Shown: positions 12,222 to 25,324, counted from the first letter of the stretch. The stretch is 25,324 nt of DNA from a phage (GCA_015694865.1 GCA_015694865.1_3933.1); one strand, 5' to 3'. Made by a program: numbers and translations. Notes: generated by a model from the sequence alone, not told the origin.

Positions 12222-12779
12222 TTACTTTCTCAGTGGATGAATAAAGAATGCCAACATAACTCTTTCCCTTGAGAATGCTCTTTCTTCTGGGACAACACTT
12301 TTTAGTTTCCATCCAATATAAATTCTCCAGTAAAACTGTTTACCAAAGACTTTAATTGATGGGATAAAAGCGAATAATCCCCAAGCATTACTGTTCCACA
12401 TTAGGAGATAACCTGTCTGATTATCTTCAGGGTCAGAACTTACGTTGATATTACCTTTCCACTTAGTAACATCTTTTACATCTCTTCCTAATACATGGTA
12501 AGAGAAGTTATAGGCTTTGTTTCTCCAGAGCCATCCGACTCTCTGCATGTAGACACCCAGCTTACCAATCTTTCTAATCTTAGCCCATCGTTCGATATGA
12601 CCTTCGTCACCATCAATTGGGTTGTCATATGTCTCCATCCATCTAAATCCGAAAGGTAAGTGGCCTTTCTTCTCACTGTAAAATGGAACTACGAAAGGTG
12701 CTAAGATAACTGCTAAGGTTGCTGCTAATGGTTCTAGCAAAGCTAGGAAAATCCATGAAGCATATTTTAAATATCTCAT
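12222..12779 (-). CDS. hypothetical membrane-anchored protein embedded in the tRNA array
   Basis: 185 aa ORF; N-terminal hydrophobic helix (ASWIFLALLEPLAATLAVILAPFVVPF), Trp-rich soluble part; coupled to the upstream small ORF. Confidence 0.5.
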   Translation of the reverse strand: MRYLKYASWIFLALLEPLAATLAVILAPFVVPFYSEKKGHLPFGFRWMETYDNPIDGDEGHIERWAKIRKIGKLGVYMQRVGWLWRNKAYNFSYHVLGRDVKDVTKWKGNINVSSDPEDNQTGYLLMWNSNAWGLFAFIPSIKVFGKQFYWRIYIGWKLKSVVPEERAFSRERVMLAFFIHPLRK

Positions 12780-15614: not shown

Positions 15615-17029
15615 TTACCAGATGTAACGGTCAATCATTACTGCTTTGAGCATTACACTGATTGGGTCAAACTTCTCACCACCAAGCAGAGCTTTTAAAG
15701 TAGCTGGAGAAAAACCAGATACCATTGCTACACCGTTATCCTTAACAGACACTTCGCAAGTACCATTACGGTTTGCTAAGTACCAGAATACCAGTTGAGG
15801 CATTTCGTATCCAGCTTTTTTGTACTTACTCTGAATTGCTTCAAAGTTTGTACGACCGTTAGCTCCATCAACCTGATTGAACTCCATATCGGAGAAGATG
15901 ATAAGCTTACTTGCATGTCTTTCTTAGTCAAGTTGTTTCTCTTACCTACCTCAAGAATCCGGTCAAAAGCTGCTTGTAAGTTAGTTGAGCCATATTCAAC
16001 ATGTCGCATCACCTGACGATGACGGTTTCGTAAATCACCACTCAGTTCGATGAAGTGAGGGTTTGTTGAATAAACCATTAACTCATCCTTAAAGCAACCT
16101 GTATTGCGTTCTGCTACATACAAGGCAAGGGATACACCAATATCAAGGGCAGTGATTGAACCAAGATTCACCCAAGACATTGAGCTTGAAACATCAGTCA
16201 TACACAAGATGTTTTCACCTTCTGCCATCCAGTTTGGTAGTGCTTTCCACTGCTCATTGGCAACATCTGCATTACCATGCTTGATAGACTTAATCACATC
16301 GTATGGGTAAACAGCACCAGCGTTAATCTTAGTCTCACCTTTTGATAAGGACTCAATGTAAGCTTTGTAACGTTCTCCATCCTTACGGTTAAACAGTTTT
16401 TGGTAACGTGCAGCAGCAAGTGAAGGAGTCTTACTGTAGTCAATCTTACCAAACTCATTAGCAGAGATTTTTTGCTCAACTGTATCAGATAGTGCAGACA
16501 ACAGTGTGCGGTACTCTTTCTCACTCAAGTTGGCAAACTTGCAGAAACGTTTTACAAACTGCTTATGACGTGGTTTGACTCGTGGTAACCACTTAGCCGC
16601 CAAACCTGCTGTTGCAGGTTCTAGTAATGCTGCTTCTAGATGTTTGAAGGCATCTGTCTCGAAACGAGTACCTACGAAGATTTTGAAGTCATCAAAACGA
16701 CCAAGTTCTGCAATCTTATCCATAATGCGAAGAACCTGCGTAGGCTCTAAAACTTTGTCTTCAATCGCTTGAAGTAAAACAGTTCTGAAGGCTTTACGCT
16801 CACCCATACCTTCTCGTACATCTCGCATATGAAGCAAAATACGAACTGCAACATCAACATCCTCACGCAAAGCTTTGTAGAACAGGTCTGGTAAGATTTC
16901 TACGTTGCTACGGCTTGAACCAGCAGCTTTGTAAAAGTCTACAAGAGCAGACATTGATGAAGTATGGTTTACAGCACCATTTTCAGTTCGACCTGCATGA
17001 AGGTGCGCATGTTTAAATAATTCGCTCAT
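15615..17029 (-). CDS. Ro60-like vWA-domain protein, interrupted by an apparent frameshift near 15885-15926
   Basis: Two overlapping minus-strand ORFs (15776..17029 and 15615..15887) in different frames; MIDAS-like TDVSSSM motif in the first; the second frame reads ...HASKLIIFSDMEFNQ..., typical of the end of a vWA fold. Ro60-like (DUF2828-type) assignment is from memory. Confidence 0.6.
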
Positions 17030-18739: not shown

Positions 18740-19111
18740 ATGAAAGCTAAGAGTGCAAAAGACTTTTATTGCTTACTACAATCCTATATCAATTCCGTGC
18801 AAAATGGTGAAAGGTACAACCTTAATGATGTTATCCCAACACCTTTGACATGGAGACTCAGTAAATGGCCTGAAGAAGATATTACACCAACAAGCAAACA
18901 ACACACCTACAAACCTGAAATCAATATTCCAGACTCTGAGAACCTATTATATCCAATGTTCCATATTGTTGGTCTTGGGAGATTCCTTATGGATATTCAG
19001 TATGTAATTGGTAAAGGTTATAAGGTTAAAGGCATTGTTGTTGGTGATGTATCTCCACACCACAAAGGTTATTTTAGACTAAACGCACATTTAGAGGCTA
19101 AAAAGAAATGA
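18740..19111 (+). CDS. hypothetical protein, paralog of the N-terminal region of 19108..19740
   Basis: 123 aa; AAGGA RBS; shares motifs with the next ORF (W.EEDI / WPEADI, YKP, DSE..LY / SDELLY, MDIQY / MDLQY). Confidence 0.55.
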   Translation: MKAKSAKDFYCLLQSYINSVQNGERYNLNDVIPTPLTWRLSKWPEEDITPTSKQHTYKPEINIPDSENLLYPMFHIVGLGRFLMDIQYVIGKGYKVKGIVVGDVSPHHKGYFRLNAHLEAKKK

Positions 19112-19740
19112 TTAAAGCAAAGACTTACCCAGACTTTAAAGAGTTTGTGAAGGGCTTCATTGCAAACGTAAAGGTTGGTAAGAGATATGATTTTAGAACA
19201 TATCAAGAGGCTATTTTACCACTTACCTATAGTTCATATTGGCCTGAAGCTGATATTGCAGAAGTTGAGAAGTTTGACTACAAACCAGACTACAAAGTTC
19301 CATTTAGTGATGAATTGCTTTACAGTGTTGGTGCACAGATGAGAACTGCTGATTTCTTCATGGATTTGCAGTATGCAATCATCAATGGTAAAGATGTTGA
19401 CACAATTTACTGTGAATGGTTGGCAAGAGTTAAGCCGTTCTCAATGTTGAATGCTAAGTTGAAAGATGTCATCACACCACCAACAATCACTCAGCAACCA
19501 ACCAATCAAACAGTAAATGAAGGGGGTACACTTACCCTAAGCGTTATTGCAACTAATGCCACTGGTTATCAATGGAAAAAGGATGGTGAGGACATCCCTA
19601 GTGCCAATTCTGCAACTTACACCAAAGAAGGTGCAACCGCTGCTGATGCAGGAAGCTACACCTGTGTAGTTACTGGTGCAGGTGGCTCTGTAACATCTAA
19701 TGCAGCAACAGTTACTGTTAACCCAGCAGGGGAGGCATAA
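19108..19740 (+). CDS. hypothetical protein with C-terminal Ig-like domain
   Basis: 210 aa; ATGA overlap with the previous gene; C-terminus ...TLTLSVIATNATGYQWKKDGEDIPSANSATYTKEGATAADAGSYTCVVTGAGGSVTSNAATVTV... has the Y-x-C pattern of Ig-like domains. Confidence 0.6.
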   Translation: MIKAKTYPDFKEFVKGFIANVKVGKRYDFRTYQEAILPLTYSSYWPEADIAEVEKFDYKPDYKVPFSDELLYSVGAQMRTADFFMDLQYAIINGKDVDTIYCEWLARVKPFSMLNAKLKDVITPPTITQQPTNQTVNEGGTLTLSVIATNATGYQWKKDGEDIPSANSATYTKEGATAADAGSYTCVVTGAGGSVTSNAATVTVNPAGEA

Positions 19741-20204
19741 TGCAACTCTCAAGAAAAGGTTTAGAAGCTATTAAGTTCTTTGAAGGTCTTAAGCTTGAGG
19801 CTTACGAAGATTCTGCTGGAATCCCCACAATTGGGTATGGGACAATTCGTATTGGTGGGAAGCCTGTTAAGATGGGTATGAAGATTACCGCTGAACAAGC
19901 TGAACAGTATCTTCTTGCAGATGTTGAAAAGTTCGTTGCAGCAGTGAACAAAGCCATCAAGGTTCCAACTTCTCAGAATGAGTTTGATGCACTTGTAAGT
20001 GAAACATACAACATTGGTATCACAGCTATGCAGGACTCTACATTTATCAAGCGCCACAATGCTGGTAATAAGGTCGGTTGTGCAGAAGCTATGCAGTGGT
20101 GGAACAAGGTTACAGTAAAAGGTAAGAAGGTCACTTCAAACGGCCTGAAAAACAGACGTAGAATGGAAGCTGACATTTATCTTGACAGTGTATATCCAAA
20201 GTAA
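19740..20204 (+). CDS. endolysin, GH24 (T4 lysozyme-like) family
   Basis: 154 aa; N-terminal FEGLKLEAYEDSAGIPTIGYG carries the Glu…Asp…Thr catalytic arrangement; GGGGAGG RBS; terminator immediately downstream. Confidence 0.85.
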   Translation: MQLSRKGLEAIKFFEGLKLEAYEDSAGIPTIGYGTIRIGGKPVKMGMKITAEQAEQYLLADVEKFVAAVNKAIKVPTSQNEFDALVSETYNIGITAMQDSTFIKRHNAGNKVGCAEAMQWWNKVTVKGKKVTSNGLKNRRRMEADIYLDSVYPK

Positions 20205-20213
20205 TATCTTCAT

Positions 20214-20240
20214 AGGCTCCTTCGGGAGCCTTTTTTATTT
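20214..20240 (+). terminator. rho-independent terminator after the endolysin gene
   Basis: AGGCTCC-ttcg-GGAGCCT hairpin followed by TTTTTTATTTT. Confidence 0.8.
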
Positions 20241-20255
20241 TCTAAGGAGAAAACT

Positions 20256-20654
20256 ATGAAACTTTGGGCTAGTGACTTTGGAACTTTTAAGTACACTCGT
20301 AATGGCTCGCTTGTACGCATTGTCGGAAACAATGTGGTTTCAAGAGGTGACAAGGTGTATACACGGTTTACTGTAGAGCTTGTTGAGCTGTCGCCTATTG
20401 AGTCTGTGAACAATGGTCTGTTCAAGTTTGAGACTTACAATGTCAATGAGCATGGACAATTTAACCCTCTTGGCGAAAGTGGACTTGATATTATTTCAGA
20501 ACACCCGTTGACAAAAGAGCAACTTGCAGGTTACTATAAAACTGTTCTGGAAAGGCAGTTAGCAACACATGAACAAGAAGCTAACTACCACCTACATCAT
20601 TGCGAAACTTTAAGAGCAAAAATCGAACAAGCAGAGAGAGGTTTTTATGAATAA
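20256..20654 (+). CDS. hypothetical protein
   Basis: 132 aa ORF; AAGGAG RBS. Confidence 0.55.
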   Translation: MKLWASDFGTFKYTRNGSLVRIVGNNVVSRGDKVYTRFTVELVELSPIESVNNGLFKFETYNVNEHGQFNPLGESGLDIISEHPLTKEQLAGYYKTVLERQLATHEQEANYHLHHCETLRAKIEQAERGFYE

Positions 20655-21045
20655 AGATGTTAGAGATATCCAAGTAAAAGTTGACACGTTTGGCCATGAT
20701 GGTCGAGAAGATATAGGTTTTGCCGATGCAGTAATATACAAGTGCAACGGAGATTTATTCCTTCAGTTTACAGGGTCTGGAAGCACACTTCATCGAGTAC
20801 GAGATGATGAAGATGGTTGTCCTGTATTTGGTTGGTTTGACAGGGAGTTCCCTCTTTACGCAATCCACTACCCAGATGGTGGTGAAGATTGGACAACCCA
20901 ATCAATCTTTGATGAGCTTAATGGTGTTCCAGTTGAGCAAGAAGAGCGAGAGCCTGTTGAACTTACCTTCACCTTTATCAAAGAAGAGAAAGTAGGTGAC
21001 TTGTCAGTAACTGAAGCAATTCAAGTTTCACAGGTGATTCGTTAA
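20647..21045 (+). CDS. hypothetical protein
   Basis: 132 aa ORF; overlaps the previous stop; GAGAGG RBS. Confidence 0.55.
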   Translation: MNKDVRDIQVKVDTFGHDGREDIGFADAVIYKCNGDLFLQFTGSGSTLHRVRDDEDGCPVFGWFDREFPLYAIHYPDGGEDWTTQSIFDELNGVPVEQEEREPVELTFTFIKEEKVGDLSVTEAIQVSQVIR

Positions 21046-21338
21046 TGAGTAAAGTACAGGTTATTTTCCCTATTTGTGACTTCTCACTAGAGCGTGAACT
21101 TGACCTGTACGAAGAAATTACTGACGAAATCATCTGGTCTGTTGTAGAAGAGGCTATCAAGAAACTGTATGGTGGCCTCTTAAATCCATCAAGTAAAAAG
21201 CTCACTACTAAGCAAGTAGCTGATACGTACACTTCATATGATGCCTACAACAAACCTTTTGAAAATACCTGCTTTGACCTTATGGTAGGTAATAACAAAG
21301 TCAACTATTTCTTCGTCAGAGAGTTTAACGATGAGTAA
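21045..21338 (+). CDS. hypothetical protein
   Basis: 97 aa ORF; TAATG stop/start overlap. Confidence 0.5.
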   Translation: MSKVQVIFPICDFSLERELDLYEEITDEIIWSVVEEAIKKLYGGLLNPSSKKLTTKQVADTYTSYDAYNKPFENTCFDLMVGNNKVNYFFVREFNDE

Positions 21339-21675
21339 GCTCCATGTCACAGTGTACAAAAACTTCTCAGATATCAAAGAGTCTTTAACAAATAAGCTTG
21401 ACTTACAACGTAAAAGACTCTTCTTAATGTACGATATAGACAACTACAACCATCCTAAAGAGTTTAACTACAAAGATGGTACAAAGGTTGTTGAGTTTGA
21501 AGATTCTGTGACGGTATATGTCAAGCATGACTTACCAGCAAAGTACATAGGGATGTTAGAGTACTATATATTCAAACACACAGGTATGCGTGGTGAATCT
21601 GTCAAGATATCTTCTATAGAAGTTTTTGAGAAACCTAACACACAACTTAAAAAGTATTTAATGAGGAAACTGTAA
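21331..21675 (+). CDS. hypothetical protein
   Basis: 114 aa ORF; overlaps the previous gene end. Confidence 0.5.
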   Translation: MSKLHVTVYKNFSDIKESLTNKLDLQRKRLFLMYDIDNYNHPKEFNYKDGTKVVEFEDSVTVYVKHDLPAKYIGMLEYYIFKHTGMRGESVKISSIEVFEKPNTQLKKYLMRKL

Positions 21676-22256
21676 TGTCCGAAGAGCAACAGAATATTAC
21701 TCCACAAGTAACACTGGTACAACATTTTGGAAATATTGAAGGGTGTATTGCACTTTTTCAACCAAGCATCAACTCTCCTGCAAAAGTTTGTAAGTTGACT
21801 ATGAATGTGAACAATATCAGTGTTTGCCTTGTTGATGAAGTCCAGTACTTCAAATTCAATGACAGAGAGGTTGATGCTGCACTATTGAAGTATCGAGCAA
21901 GCCTCGAAAAAGACATCGACCACAAAGAACTTGTAACACTGTTTGGTGACCTTCACAAGCTTCTTGAAAAGGTTATGAAGCGCACATACTACATGAACAA
22001 CGGTTCAATCATCACCACTTTGATTTCACCATGTATTTCAGAGCCAATTTTAACTGATGACGGTGGATACTACGTGGTAGCATCAGCAGATTCTGATTGG
22101 TGGATGAAGAACACAGCACTTAAAACAGTGATTGAGGCTATCCGCGAACATATCCCTTCATTCAGCCCGTGGAAAGGTAAAAGTGATGATTTCATTGCAC
22201 TATTGAGTGAAGAGAGTAACAAGCGCAGTGCATTGCTGCCTAAAAAATACTCTTGA
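21675..22256 (+). CDS. hypothetical protein
   Basis: 193 aa ORF; GAGGA RBS; start overlaps the previous stop. Confidence 0.55.
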   Translation: MSEEQQNITPQVTLVQHFGNIEGCIALFQPSINSPAKVCKLTMNVNNISVCLVDEVQYFKFNDREVDAALLKYRASLEKDIDHKELVTLFGDLHKLLEKVMKRTYYMNNGSIITTLISPCISEPILTDDGGYYVVASADSDWWMKNTALKTVIEAIREHIPSFSPWKGKSDDFIALLSEESNKRSALLPKKYS

Positions 22257-22281
22257 CCGAGTATACAACACTGATTATGAT

Positions 22282-22312
22282 GGGAGCTATCGAGAGGTAG
22301 TTCCCTTTTTAG
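22282..22312 (+). terminator. candidate rho-independent terminator
   Basis: GGGAGCTA-tcgagagg-TAGTTCCC stem (one G-U pair) followed by TTTTT. Confidence 0.5.
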
Positions 22313-22339
22313 TTTCTAGATAAGAGACATGGTAAAAGA

Positions 22340-22558
22340 ATGAAAAAACTAACTACAGTTGAAGACTACTACAAACTGTCCCTGTTAGAGCAGTATCGTA
22401 GGAGCCAGAATATCAGAAAATGCTATGGTAAACACGCTGAAGGTGACTTTTACCGTTGCTACGATGCAGATTTAAAAGGTGTAACACCTAGAGGGAAAGT
22501 CCTGCAAAGGCTTGTTGACCTTGAGTGGAACAAACGATTGAGAGGGTTTGGGAAATGA
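22340..22558 (+). CDS. hypothetical small protein
   Basis: 72 aa ORF; weak RBS; stop overlaps the next start. Confidence 0.45.
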   Translation: MKKLTTVEDYYKLSLLEQYRRSQNIRKCYGKHAEGDFYRCYDADLKGVTPRGKVLQRLVDLEWNKRLRGFGK

Positions 22559-23058
22559 TTTACGAAGAAAGATACAAAATAGATTACCAGAAGACTGGTC
22601 ATCATACTTCTCTTAGAGTAACCAAACCAAATGGGGATACCGGTATCATAGCACACTTTGGTGGTGACTATTGGTACGGTACAGGTTGCTTTGAAGGCTA
22701 CACTCAAGAATACTTGAAAGCTTTCTACAGAGACTTTACAAATGACTACAACAGGGTTGTTGAAGAGAAGAATAAGTGCATTAAGCATGAATATCATGCC
22801 AGAGGTTGTCTAAATATTGTTATGATACTAGTGTTCTTCTTAGCAACATTACTAGCTGTATCAGCAATCAGCTACATAGCTCAAGACTTGACCATTACAC
22901 AGATTACTGCAAAGTTGCATGATGTCTGGTACTTGTATGTTGTTCCTTTAGCTGGTATCATCATCTCACTAATGAGGTTCAGAGTTCATAAGAAACGACT
23001 TAAGAATTCTGAGGTTAAACTTGAAGAGGTAAGTAAAGAATGCAACCTACAATTATAG
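22555..23058 (+). CDS. hypothetical membrane protein (two predicted transmembrane helices)
   Basis: ORF 22525..23058 trimmed to the ATG at 22555 (GAGGG RBS, ATGA overlap with the previous gene); hydrophobic segments LNIVMILVFFLATLLAVSAISYI and WYLYVVPLAGIIISLM. Confidence 0.5.
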   Translation: MIYEERYKIDYQKTGHHTSLRVTKPNGDTGIIAHFGGDYWYGTGCFEGYTQEYLKAFYRDFTNDYNRVVEEKNKCIKHEYHARGCLNIVMILVFFLATLLAVSAISYIAQDLTITQITAKLHDVWYLYVVPLAGIIISLMRFRVHKKRLKNSEVKLEEVSKECNLQL

Positions 23059-23134
23059 CTGTATGTGTTCGTTTTGCAATCGCTGAAATGATTAACAAGG
23101 CAATCTTAAAAGATGCCTATGGAGAGACTAAGTA

Positions 23135-23359
23135 ATGATTAAGACACCTGTACCAATCTTTGGATTTCCTTCTATAGAAGAGTTCAAAGTTTATCTTGAC
23201 AAAAACTTCTACAACGAGCAGCCTGTTACTTTGCTGAAGAGTGACTTATCAGAGCTTCTTGATATGGTTATTAAGGCAACTTCTGAGAAGGAGCCTGAAC
23301 AGAAAGCTGAGAAGAAGACTAGTAAGAAATCTGATAAGAAGACTGAAAAGTCTGAGTAA
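23135..23359 (+). CDS. hypothetical small protein with lysine-rich C-terminus
   Basis: 74 aa ORF; GGAGAG RBS; C-terminal KAEKKTSKKSDKKTEKSE. Confidence 0.45.
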   Translation: MIKTPVPIFGFPSIEEFKVYLDKNFYNEQPVTLLKSDLSELLDMVIKATSEKEPEQKAEKKTSKKSDKKTEKSE

Positions 23360-23412
23360 TAGCTTAAGGGGTTACTTGATAGCCCCTTTGTAGAAACTTA
23401 GAAGGTAGCGAA

Positions 23413-23841
23413 ATGAAAGAACTTATAGGTAAAGAGCTTGACGTTGTAGATGCAAAGACACAGAGGTATATAGCTACTGTTAAGTTTCTTGGAATGAATG
23501 ATGCAAGTGATGATTACCCTCTCAACTGCATAGTTTTAGATAAGTTTAAGGTTTGTGGTATTAATTTTAATGAGGATAACTTTATAAGCTTTGATAAGGA
23601 CGGTTTCTGGCGTGGTAAGAACCACCCTCAAGCAAATGAGTTTGATATGCGTCTAGTGATACCACAAAAAGGTAAATCACAAAATGTAAAAGATATCCTT
23701 GTAGAAGCCTATGCAGAAGGTATAATAGCTGTTGTGCATGATGTTGAAAAAGCTTTAAAGCTTGTTATGCCACATTTAGAATCTGGAAAGCTGACTTTAG
23801 AGATGCTTAATAGGGTTATTCGGAGAGCTTATGAAAATTAA
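23413..23841 (+). CDS. hypothetical protein
   Basis: 142 aa ORF; GAAGG RBS. Confidence 0.55.
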   Translation: MKELIGKELDVVDAKTQRYIATVKFLGMNDASDDYPLNCIVLDKFKVCGINFNEDNFISFDKDGFWRGKNHPQANEFDMRLVIPQKGKSQNVKDILVEAYAEGIIAVVHDVEKALKLVMPHLESGKLTLEMLNRVIRRAYEN

Positions 23842-24295
23842 AGAAGTAGTGCAAAGAGCAATGCTTGACAACTCAACTAAAGATGAGATGTACAAAGAGA
23901 TTTGTGATAAGTTGAATTGCTCAAGACATGCTGCTAAGGTTCTTGTACATTGTTTTATCTGGGAATGCTCAGAAGTTTATATGAAACACGTAGCTTTTGA
24001 GAGTTCTCATTTACTCGGTGATGCAAAAATAGGTGTAGCACTAAAAGAGCCTGAGATGAAAACAGTACCTAAAGTTGGTAATGTGTATAAACTAAAAAAT
24101 TTTATTACAGGCGAGATTGTTGCAGAAGGTGAAGTGCAACAGGTTTATCATGATGGTAAATATCTGTTTAAGATATTCGAGTATGATAGTCGTTACAGAC
24201 ACTTATGTGGTATTACATTTTTAGTTTCAGAGGATGACCTCATCAAGAACAATAGTAATAAATTCGCAGTACCAGAATATCAAGTTTTACGATAA
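23831..24295 (+). CDS. hypothetical protein
   Basis: 154 aa ORF; GGAGAG RBS; overlaps the previous gene end. Confidence 0.55.
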   Translation: MKIKEVVQRAMLDNSTKDEMYKEICDKLNCSRHAAKVLVHCFIWECSEVYMKHVAFESSHLLGDAKIGVALKEPEMKTVPKVGNVYKLKNFITGEIVAEGEVQQVYHDGKYLFKIFEYDSRYRHLCGITFLVSEDDLIKNNSNKFAVPEYQVLR

Positions 24296-24308
24296 TGGTG
24301 TGATAGAT

Positions 24309-24857
24309 ATGGAAAAAGATAACTTAAAAGAAGTTGAAGGTAACTACTTAGTACTTGACTGGAAGGATGTTCGGGAAGCACTCTCCGAAGAAAATCTTGA
24401 CTGGTTCGAACAAATTATCTTTGCAGTACGGCATAACCGAGAAGTTGAAAATGGTAAAGAGCCACTTGAAGGAATCTTTGTAGAAAGGTCTTATCCATTC
24501 TATGAAGACACTTTGCAGAAAGTTAAGATGTACTTTAAACAGAAGAACCGTAAAGTGGTCACTATGGTATCTCTTGGTGGACAGAGTATGTCTGTGATGG
24601 AAGATATCAACCCTAAGAGACCAAGTAAGGGTGTCTGTATAAAAATCACAGGTCATGAAGAGTATATCTCAGCAAGTGATTTTAGTGCATTCTGTAATGG
24701 CTCTTGTGTCTTTAATGGTTTTCACTATGATATCCGAGTTTACCCAATCAAGGGTGATGATATCATGATGCAGATATTCGATAACAACAATGGATTTACT
24801 CATTTTTATCAGACAACCAAGTCATCATTGAAAACAGTTCTGGAAACACTGATTTAA
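24309..24857 (+). CDS. hypothetical protein
   Basis: ORF 24234..24857 trimmed to the in-frame ATG at 24309, just after the previous stop; terminator follows. Confidence 0.5.
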   Translation: MEKDNLKEVEGNYLVLDWKDVREALSEENLDWFEQIIFAVRHNREVENGKEPLEGIFVERSYPFYEDTLQKVKMYFKQKNRKVVTMVSLGGQSMSVMEDINPKRPSKGVCIKITGHEEYISASDFSAFCNGSCVFNGFHYDIRVYPIKGDDIMMQIFDNNNGFTHFYQTTKSSLKTVLETLI

Positions 24858-24867
24858 AATATCTTAA

Positions 24868-24900
24868 GAGCCTCCTTAATTGGGGGCTTTTTAATTTTTT
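24868..24900 (+). terminator. rho-independent terminator ending the rightward gene block
   Basis: AGCCTCC-ttaattg-GGGGGCT hairpin followed by TTTTTAATTTTTT. Confidence 0.65.
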
Positions 24901-24940
24901 ATAAAATTTTATCGGTTGTCCCAACCTCTGGGTCACCATC

Positions 24941-25324
24941 ATATGTGAATAAAGTATCTATCCTTCTTAACAACCTTCTTAATCTTACTCTCTATATAGT
25001 TATATAGTACTATATAGTATCTTAGTAACTATCTAGTGGTCTTAATAGCCCTCTGTATAGCCCTTCTAAATAGCCATCTAAACACTCTTCTAACAAGCCT
25101 TCTTAACAACCTATACAATCACCTTAACCATCCCTCTACACCCTCTTAGAAGCTCCTATACACCTCTTAATCTCTATGTCAGCTATGTTACCCTCTATAG
25201 GTGTTCACTAGGTATTACTAAGCCTCTATATAGACTGTTTTAACAAACTTAACAGGAATATCTTTACAGACCTTATCTCACAAGGTCTAACACGGTACTA
25301 ACAAGGTATCTTATAAGCCTGTTA
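24941..25324. repeat. non-coding, pyrimidine-skewed, repeat-rich region
   Basis: No ORF of 60 aa or more on either strand; plus strand almost devoid of G; three copies of TATATAGT at 24993-25018; repeated CCTTCTTAACAACC and CTTCTAA/CTCTTAGAAGC-type motifs. Confidence 0.6.

Follow-up and report, generated by a model that had tools for sequence, protein, structure and literature searches.

Twelve small genes behind the endolysin

The subject of this analysis is a block of small genes at positions 20256-24857 of a 25,324-nucleotide stretch of phage DNA (GCA_015694865.1), which as a whole is called the window. The 25.3-kb window aligns end to end with the Felix O1-like virulent myoviruses of the genus Felixounavirus, and its nearest phages, at 96-97% identity, are the Salmonella phage FSL SP-012 and the Escherichia coli phages VpaE1, ASO1A/B and dune. 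Phages of the Felix O1 type find wide use in typing, biocontrol and therapy directed at Salmonella and E. coli, and about 15 kb of their genome, the block included, is functionally blank; in Felixounavirus this region is described as holding hypothetical proteins only (PMC8300805).

On the basis of the open reading frame (ORF) map, the PHROGs families and the annotation of relatives, the block consists of twelve genes, all on the plus strand, named g1 to g11 and g7b. An earlier note, made from the sequence of the window, had described eleven small genes of 72-193 codons. All eleven ORFs lie at the coordinates it gave, but the twelfth gene was overlooked, and the size range applies to g1-g11 and not to g7b, which has 31 codons.

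The block opens with g1 (20256-20654; 132 amino acids; phrog_4266) and the acidic g2 (20647-21045; 132 amino acids; isoelectric point, pI, 4.3). These are followed by g3 (21045-21338; 97 amino acids; phrog_4385), which is also acidic, the basic g4 (21331-21675; 114 amino acids; phrog_4040) and g5 (21675-22256; 193 amino acids; phrog_4109), the most widely retained member of the block. The basic g6 (22340-22558; 72 amino acids; phrog_4459) is joined by an ATGA coupling to g7 (22555-23058; phrog_4343), which encodes a membrane protein of 167 amino acids. A hydrophobic micro-protein of 31 amino acids is encoded by g7b (23040-23135; phrog_6279, E 3e-23), which shares 19 nt with the end of g7, is coupled to g8 through TAATG and is annotated in the phages Bas63, SUSP2 and Mushroom. 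The g8 product (23135-23359; 74 amino acids) combines a conserved N-terminal part of 50 residues with a Lys/Glu-rich tail. The remaining genes are g9 (23413-23841; 142 amino acids; phrog_7193), a variably present accessory gene, g10 (23831-24295; 154 amino acids; phrog_4713), whose N-terminal 50 residues are common to phrog_9565, and g11 (24309-24857; 182 amino acids), which encodes two domains. The start of g11 is most likely at 24309, giving 182 amino acids, and not at 24234, because that methionine is where stand-alone homologues of the first domain start, and in four relatives the annotated gene has 549 nt.

Neighboring genes overlap at eight of the eleven junctions (by 8, 1, 8, 1, 4, 19, 1 and 11 nt, in gene order) and are separated by gaps of 83, 53 and 13 nt at the other three, and a Shine-Dalgarno-like sequence precedes most of the starts. 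The tight coupling that the note had seen, with starts overlapping the preceding stops, is therefore borne out, and the genes fall into three translationally coupled groups: g1-g5, g6-g7-g7b-g8 and g9-g11.

No block protein scored at or above cutoff in Pfam, NCBIfam or PADLOC, and PHROGs placed each gene in one family of unknown function, in agreement with the earlier statement that nothing in the block belongs to a recognized family. The remote-homology check for replication or structural functions, made with profile searches of Pfam, PHROGs and NCBIfam, likewise assigned no block protein to a replication or virion family. Sequence and profile searches against the PDB, which covered g1-g5, g7 and g9-g11 and left out g6, g7b and g8, returned nothing significant. 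Matches to characterized anti-defence inhibitors were also absent for every block protein in Pfam, including the Gad1 family, and for the nine proteins searched in the PDB; no dedicated anti-defence library was scanned. A search of 5.8 billion proteins and of IMG/VR found the families of g5, g7 and g11 in Ounavirinae-type phages only. Hints below the Pfam cutoff were set aside for g5 (DUF5092, 20.5 bits against a cutoff of 27, and SNAD1) and for g6 (DUF7565). The label "D-alanyl-D-alanine carboxypeptidase" carried by the g2 homologue in phages fjerdesal and dune was rejected as well, being unsupported by Pfam, NCBIfam and the PDB.

Conservation, a Gad1 gene in a distant relative and proposed transcription units

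DNA matching region 20256-24857 was found in 254 phage records, 208 of which cover at least 80% of its length. The hosts of these phages are Escherichia, Salmonella, Shigella and Citrobacter; the exceptions are a single record listed under a Staphylococcus phage and a handful of unnamed records. The block corresponds, in the same order and with 66-100% amino acid identity, to gp122-gp112 of Bas63 (JohannRWettstein) and gp039-gp029 of AYO145A, in which the genes are annotated as hypothetical or membrane proteins. Counting from the lysin gp35, it would correspond to ORFs 34-24 of Felix O1. All 12 proteins are kept in Felixounavirus, Suspvirus (SUSP2) and Mooglevirus (Moogle) at 47-100% identity, with the exception of g9, which in this three-genus comparison was found outside some Felixounaviruses only in SUSP2 (39% identity). 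Identity across relatives is 68-100% for the short g7b; compared with Bas63, g4 is 100% identical to gp119, g7 90% identical to gp116 and g8 97% identical to gp114. Where synonymous sites are unsaturated, pairwise ratios of nonsynonymous to synonymous substitution (dN/dS) are 0.02-0.41, indicating purifying selection on the block genes. Because the proteins are conserved across three genera and show these ratios, the genes are real and more than chance ORFs.

The members of the block differ in how fast they change. Among 35 related loci, g3, g4, g7b and g8 are near-invariant within the genus, and g10 and g11 are diverse. When 34 loci are compared, g2 splits into 17 clusters at 93% identity; it has a hypervariable N-terminal half and a poly-Glu linker of differing length, together with an invariant core DGCPVFGW...YPDGxEDWTTQ. 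The gene g9 is present at 20 of the 35 loci, and no other block gene reaches its dN/dS (0.31-0.41). It is missing from Bas63, Mushroom, Moogle and others, and probably from Felix O1 (the AYO145A note on its homologue gp031 cites wV8 only). The window thus differs from Bas63 and Mushroom in carrying g9, and its alleles of g2 and g10 differ from those of Felix O1, Bas63 and AYO145A. In SUSP2 and Moogle an additional gene lies between g5 and g6, and a Hafnia phage of the Ounavirinae retains g5 as its sole block member. For now, the block is a conserved and ordinary set of Ounavirinae ORFans, catalogued already but without understood function.

A homologue of g5 at 50% identity led to L039, an 87-kb metagenomic Ounavirinae-like contig (ENA ERZ28599557 scaffold_93). 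It has the same arrangement of DUF5681, Ig-protein and lysin genes, at 45-63% identity, and its post-lysin block keeps g2 (42%), g3 (40%), g5 and g7 (23%, with the same architecture); no homologue of g1 was detected in it. A g8-like gene of 74 amino acids is coupled directly to the g7 homologue, and the g7/g8 pair stands at 23-34% identity. Judging from these sequences, g2, g3, g5, g7 and g8 would be the older core of the block, and the pairing of g7 with g8 is likely ancient, with g6 and g7b joining the pair in the lineage of the window.

About 1.3 kb further on, the same operon of L039, which comes from a myovirus of Gram-negative type, encodes an anti-Gabija protein, Gad1, of 333 amino acids (L039:9993-10994; Pfam PF25705, E 3e-65, 221 bits where the cutoff is 27); L040 has it also. 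It shares 30% identity with the Gad1 of phi3T/SPbeta over 94% of the length. Among cultured phages, Gad1 matches lie almost all in Bacillus SPbeta-like phages and none in Ounavirinae, and Pfam found no Gad1 in the window. The post-lysin region is therefore a place where a bona fide anti-defence gene has lodged. The presence of Gad1 in the post-lysin operon of a distant relative and the ancient pairing of g7 and g8 are new here, if modestly so.

Two promoter-like sites of the sigma-70 type and three intrinsic terminators, all on the plus strand, divide the region. P1 (TTGACA-N17-TATCTT; 20182..20210) lies inside the last codons of the endolysin gene, and T1, a hairpin with a T-run (20214..20240), between the endolysin gene and g1. 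P2 (TTGACC-N17-TATGAT; 22253..22281) overlaps the stop codon of g5, and T2, again a hairpin with a T-run (22282..22310), begins at the base that follows its -10 element. T3 (24866..24899) closes the block. Both promoter-like sites were found by sequence scan and the terminators by scan and in the annotation of AYO145A, which also places a promoter at the position of P1. Between g8 and g9, a hairpin without a U-tract (AAGGGG-N12-CCCCTT; 23366..23389) was not scored by the terminator scan.

The promoter regions of the window were aligned with those of Bas63, AYO145A, Mushroom, SUSP2, Moogle and two metagenomic relatives. The -35 hexamer and a TAnnnT -10 element of P1 are kept in Felixouna-, Susp- and Mooglevirus; for P2 both hexamers are kept across the three genera and the spacer diverges, a pattern that would be expected of a working promoter. 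The -10 elements of P1 and P2 end 0-3 nt before a terminator hairpin, so that a start about 7 nt downstream falls within the 5' arm. The T1 hairpin has a folding energy of -12.9 kcal/mol in read-through RNA versus -4.5 in RNA begun 7 nt past the P1 -10 element, and T2 has -16.3 kcal/mol in read-through RNA versus about -4.3 in RNA begun at P2. Read-through from the lysin operon would stop at T1 and T2, and transcripts begun at P1 and P2 would lack the full stem and continue. A third copy of this promoter-in-terminator arrangement follows the NAMPT gene in Bas63 (L004:15439) and Mushroom (L008:2959), and the general form is TTGAC-N16-17-TAnnnT. These features suggest that two units, g1-g5 and g6-g8 (the latter possibly extending to g11), are insulated from the lysin operon and served by their own host-polymerase promoters. 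Such promoter-in-terminator units are a further modest novelty of this analysis.

A literature search found no Felixounavirus transcriptome. According to reverse transcription PCR (RT-PCR) of Felix O1, the peak comes at 25 min for most of ORFs 24-35 ("middle", the same class as the lysin), at 5 min for ORF31 and at 60 min for ORF30. The resolution of this timing is doubtful, because the same table has the major capsid gene as early.

The membrane protein g7, the predicted fold of g11 and the rest of the window

The g7 protein contains the two hydrophobic segments that had been noticed earlier, at residues 81-112 and 124-142, with a loop of 15 residues between them. They follow a conserved N-terminal domain of 85 amino acids and precede a positively charged tail (RFRVHKKRLKNSEVKLEE...). 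By the positive-inside rule, the predicted topology is N-in/C-in with a cytoplasmic N-domain. The invariant residues (HFGGxxWxGTGCFEGYxxEYLKAFYRDF) are located in this soluble domain, and the helices vary. A weak PDB profile match of residues 44-78 to GpsB (E 0.024 over 35 residues; motif GY..E...F......DY) was judged marginal, as it was confirmed neither by Pfam, in which DivIVA was not matched, nor by hhalign, which gave a probability of 1.4% against an approximate B. subtilis GpsB sequence.

The earlier note had called g7 the only holin-like candidate near the endolysin. As a holin, an antiholin or a lysis-timing factor, it would build up in the inner membrane and release the GH24 endolysin encoded 2.3 kb upstream on the same strand (19740-20204, plus strand; Pfam Phage_lysozyme, E 7e-41), a soluble enzyme without a signal or signal-anchor-release (SAR) sequence, in a genus without a firmly identified holin. 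Its two transmembrane (TM) helices, where at least one is expected of a holin, together with the short periplasmic loop, the highly charged cytoplasmic C-terminus and the predicted N-in/C-in topology, resemble class II holins such as S21 of phage 21, although 167 amino acids is large for that class. The presumed Felix O1 homologue also falls into the 25-min RT-PCR class with the lysin. However, class II holins do not share the conserved cytoplasmic N-domain of 85 residues, which here is the invariant part of the protein, and g7 does not adjoin the endolysin gene: six genes, both terminators T1 and T2 and both promoters P1 and P2 lie between them. According to the PhageMaP preprint, gp116 of Bas63 groups with the non-essential genes on three hosts (PMC11482910), which argues against a holin because the sole holin for a soluble lysozyme should be needed for plaques. 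In Pfam and PHROGs, g7 matches no holin family, only phrog_4343, and none of 60 sampled records, the CPT-annotated Moogle and Mushroom included, labels a g7 homologue as a holin.

Candidates for this role have been placed elsewhere. Those of the Felix O1 authors (gp79, 116, 118, 119 and 131) map outside the block (PMC3185647), and the Mushroom annotators describe a class III holin with one helix (PMC4392139), although the Mushroom RefSeq record no longer names a holin. The spanins are encoded about 12 kb from g7 in Bas63 and Mushroom; Bas63 gp088, which adjoins them, was considered as a holin and rejected because it has no TM helix. Within the window, a protein of 185 amino acids with one N-terminal TM helix (12222-12779, minus strand; phrog_2143) is encoded inside the tRNA cluster. 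It is annotated as a holin in the Salmonella phage vB_Si_35FD, and its homologues, 56-61% identical, occur in Klebsiella, Enterobacter, Salmonella and Escherichia phages of 155-180 kb, KP15 and STML-198 among them; it is no more than a candidate for a holin of class III topology. Taken together, the dispensable homologue, the conserved soluble domain, the lack of linkage and this other candidate leave the claim made for g7 unsupported, and g7 is a poor candidate and probably not the missing holin of the phage. We regard a lysis role for it as quite unlikely.

The predicted structure of g11 has a confidence (predicted local distance difference test, pLDDT) of 82.8, with the C-terminal 100 residues mostly above 90. 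In the model, the C-terminal domain (residues ~80-182) has two beta-beta-beta-beta-alpha units and is superposable on Whirly structures, as expected of a member of that fold. The predicted likeness to Whirly/PC4 domains is at the level of fold, at 6-13% identity and without a sequence-profile link: Pfam Whirly, PurA and PC4 and the PDB profiles gave no match to g11, and an exhaustive profile search found the domain in Ounavirinae-type proteins only. Unlike the Whirly or type I PC4-like domains of plant WHY/PBF-2 p24 and trypanosome MRP1/2, it is fused to an unrelated phage domain at its N-terminus. This N-domain (residues 1-77; 24309-24540; motif ExRYLVLKxxD...GKxPLxCVVVExDWPxYE) is widespread in phages and prophages, with 309 cluster representatives at E<=1e-3, mostly stand-alone proteins of 70-130 amino acids or N-termini before varied C-termini. 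No Pfam model covers this undescribed domain, and the ten of its proteins that were scanned gave no credible Pfam assignment. The jumbo-phage RNA-binding protein ChmC reportedly provides a phage example of the Whirly/type I PC4-like fold. The Whirly-like fold of g11 is, in a modest sense, new here, and the model suggests that g11 may bind single-stranded nucleic acid through this domain.

Behind g11, 24858-25324 is the start of a gene-free region of about 1.6 kb between convergent operons, which extends about 1.2 kb past the window and is present in all three genera (compare L001:8600-10250). It contains dense repeats of the CTTAACA/CTAACAAG type at 11- and 31-nt spacing and long imperfect inverted repeats, and matches no Rfam family. 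Its role could be that of an origin, of a site for packaging or of an array that binds protein.

As the last gene before this repeat-packed region, g11 might be a Whirly-type single-strand-binding or origin-melting factor acting on the adjoining 1.6 kb of iteron-rich DNA, with its neighbors as accessory replication proteins, so that the block would partly serve replication or recombination. Phage T5 does have a PC4-like factor for recombination-dependent replication (PMC7549692). However, the recognized replication genes of these phages are tens of kb distant, and no other block member carries the signature of a nucleic-acid enzyme. The Whirly-like domain is confined to the lineage, where replication cores are usually broadly conserved, and g11 is acidic overall. 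In L039, which kept g2, g3, g5, g7 and g8, g11 was not detected in the 14.6 kb covering the block. We therefore consider a replication role unlikely.

The rest of the window comprises, on the minus strand, terminase and head genes, 22 tRNAs, a Ro60/vWFA-type protein and a DUF5681 protein, and, on the plus strand from about 17.9 kb, two small genes, a 123-amino-acid protein, an Ig-domain protein and the GH24 endolysin ahead of the block. An Rfam search found tRNAs only. The reading of 15.7-17.5 kb as the integrase/repressor switch of a temperate phage is wrong, as the window belongs to a virulent Felixounavirus and the "integrase-like" ORF of 417 amino acids is the Ro60/vWFA-type protein (15776-17029, minus strand; DUF2828/DUF7788; "RNA-binding protein" in PHROGs), which adjoins the tRNA array. 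The PhageMaP preprint reports that the Bas63 homologue gp130 counters the ppl defence system and that g123, the endolysin homologue, is a trigger of the Ec67 retron (PMC11482910); the latter role is unexpected for a lysozyme. The 123-amino-acid protein (18740-19111, plus strand) and the N-terminal ~120 residues of the adjoining Ig-domain protein are paralogous (phrog_4463/phrog_3995 cross-hits). The Ig-domain protein itself (19108-19740, plus strand) has 210 amino acids here and 294-460 in relatives, and the number of Ig repeats differs among phages.

Proposed conditional host-interaction functions and likenesses to known systems

Published phenotypes exist for the homologues of two block genes. 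In the PhageMaP knockout screen of Bas63, g116 (g7) and g114 (g8) are non-essential on BW25113, DH10B and MG1655 and more essential on S17-1, and they are two of four Bas63 genes with increased essentiality on that host; the 66-80 kb region of Bas63 is presented there as small hypothetical genes of varying essentiality (PMC11482910). The Bas63 gene numbering was matched to locus tags through g79/80, g84/85, g124 and g130. In the virion proteome of Felix O1, ORFs 23 and 36 are listed and none of ORFs 24-34 (PMC3185647). The DRT7 trigger of Bas63, gene 035, lies outside the block. A literature search found no paper on Felix O1 anti-defence, and the genus is outside the scope of the HIDEN-SEQ and transposon essentiality preprints.

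We propose, with a probability of roughly 0.55, that the block is a lineage-specific accessory part of the rightward transcription region on the lysin side, made up of non-virion genes for conditional interaction with the host. Its products would act on the host during infection, in conditional host-range, counter-defence or envelope functions, and would not serve replication, morphogenesis or canonical lysis. The g7/g8 pair would be an ancient membrane-anchored module needed in some hosts only, and g2, g9, g10 and g11 would be the fast-changing members. The molecular functions of all the genes are what we infer from this setting. The earlier suggestion of host-takeover or anti-defence genes agrees with the S17-1 dependence of the g7 and g8 homologues in the screen (PMC11482910), the patchy distribution of g9, the hypervariability of g2, g10 and g11, and the presence of Gad1 in a relative, but none of the proteins of the window falls into a known anti-defence family, and anti-defence is supported for the block by association only.

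Several points weigh against the proposal. No protein of the window matches a characterized anti-defence, takeover or exclusion protein, and the assignment of function therefore rests on context and on the pooled screen of one preprint. The g116 and g114 phenotypes could be polar, both genes being in one coupled operon, and S17-1 differs from the other hosts in many respects, RP4, Mu and pili among them, so the effect need not be one of defence. All that the Gad1 gene of the relative shows is that cargo of this kind is tolerated in the region. For g11, the SsgA/SsgB cell-division proteins share the Whirly fold without binding nucleic acid, and the protein, with a pI of 5.3, is not basic. P1 and P2 are consensus matches without mapped 5' ends. 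Finally, most of the corresponding Felix O1 ORFs fall into the middle class with the lysin and are not early as takeover genes usually are, which is weak evidence either way.

The same position behind the lysin could also suit late non-virion helpers of morphogenesis (chaperones or assembly factors, for instance), whose genes would share transcripts with those of the lysin and the Ig-domain decoration or tail protein. The block has the same orientation as these genes and follows directly behind the lysin gene and a gene for a virion protein (gp36 in Felix O1, taken as the Ig-domain protein from its position next to gp35), and several of its proteins are small and acidic, as many chaperones are. 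However, the sole published phenotypes, those of g114 and g116, are conditional and not general, and g9 is variably present. Erwinia Ounavirinae share the structural module at the DNA level and are absent from the block-wide DNA matches and from the g5 and g7 protein matches, a pattern that counts against assembly factors because these are usually conserved with their structural partners. The sigma-70-type promoters of the block, with their strong -35 elements, also argue against pure late control. A morphogenesis role is thus very unlikely.

The proposed host-interaction role can be given a more specific form, which is speculative and, taken as a whole, rather improbable. In it, g6-g7-g7b-g8 would form a membrane-anchored host-range or counter-exclusion module directed against an envelope barrier, for example one set up by RP4, Mu or Tn7 of S17-1, and g11 would represent a new class of phage Whirly-fold proteins that interfere with a host RNA or DNA process. 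If this were true, the post-lysin block would be an anti-defence island of the Ounavirinae and its members would include several undescribed inhibitor families. More generally, should some of the block genes determine host range or counteract defences, differences in phage efficacy from strain to strain would be explained, and such genes could be transferred between phages. The targets are narrowed to the ancient, coupled and conditionally required g7/g8 pair, to g11 as a predicted nucleic-acid binder, and to the hypervariable g2, g9 and g10.

Virulent phages are known to carry clusters of accessory and anti-defence genes, among them the clusters of non-essential small ORFs in T4 and the 0.3-0.7 region of T7. 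The block differs from these clusters and from the Gad1 phages in that none of the window's proteins is a member of a recognized anti-defence family and in its uncertain expression class. It resembles them in that its genes are small, coupled, lineage-restricted, individually dispensable and patchy in distribution, with fast-evolving members, and in that the corresponding block of a relative carries Gad1.

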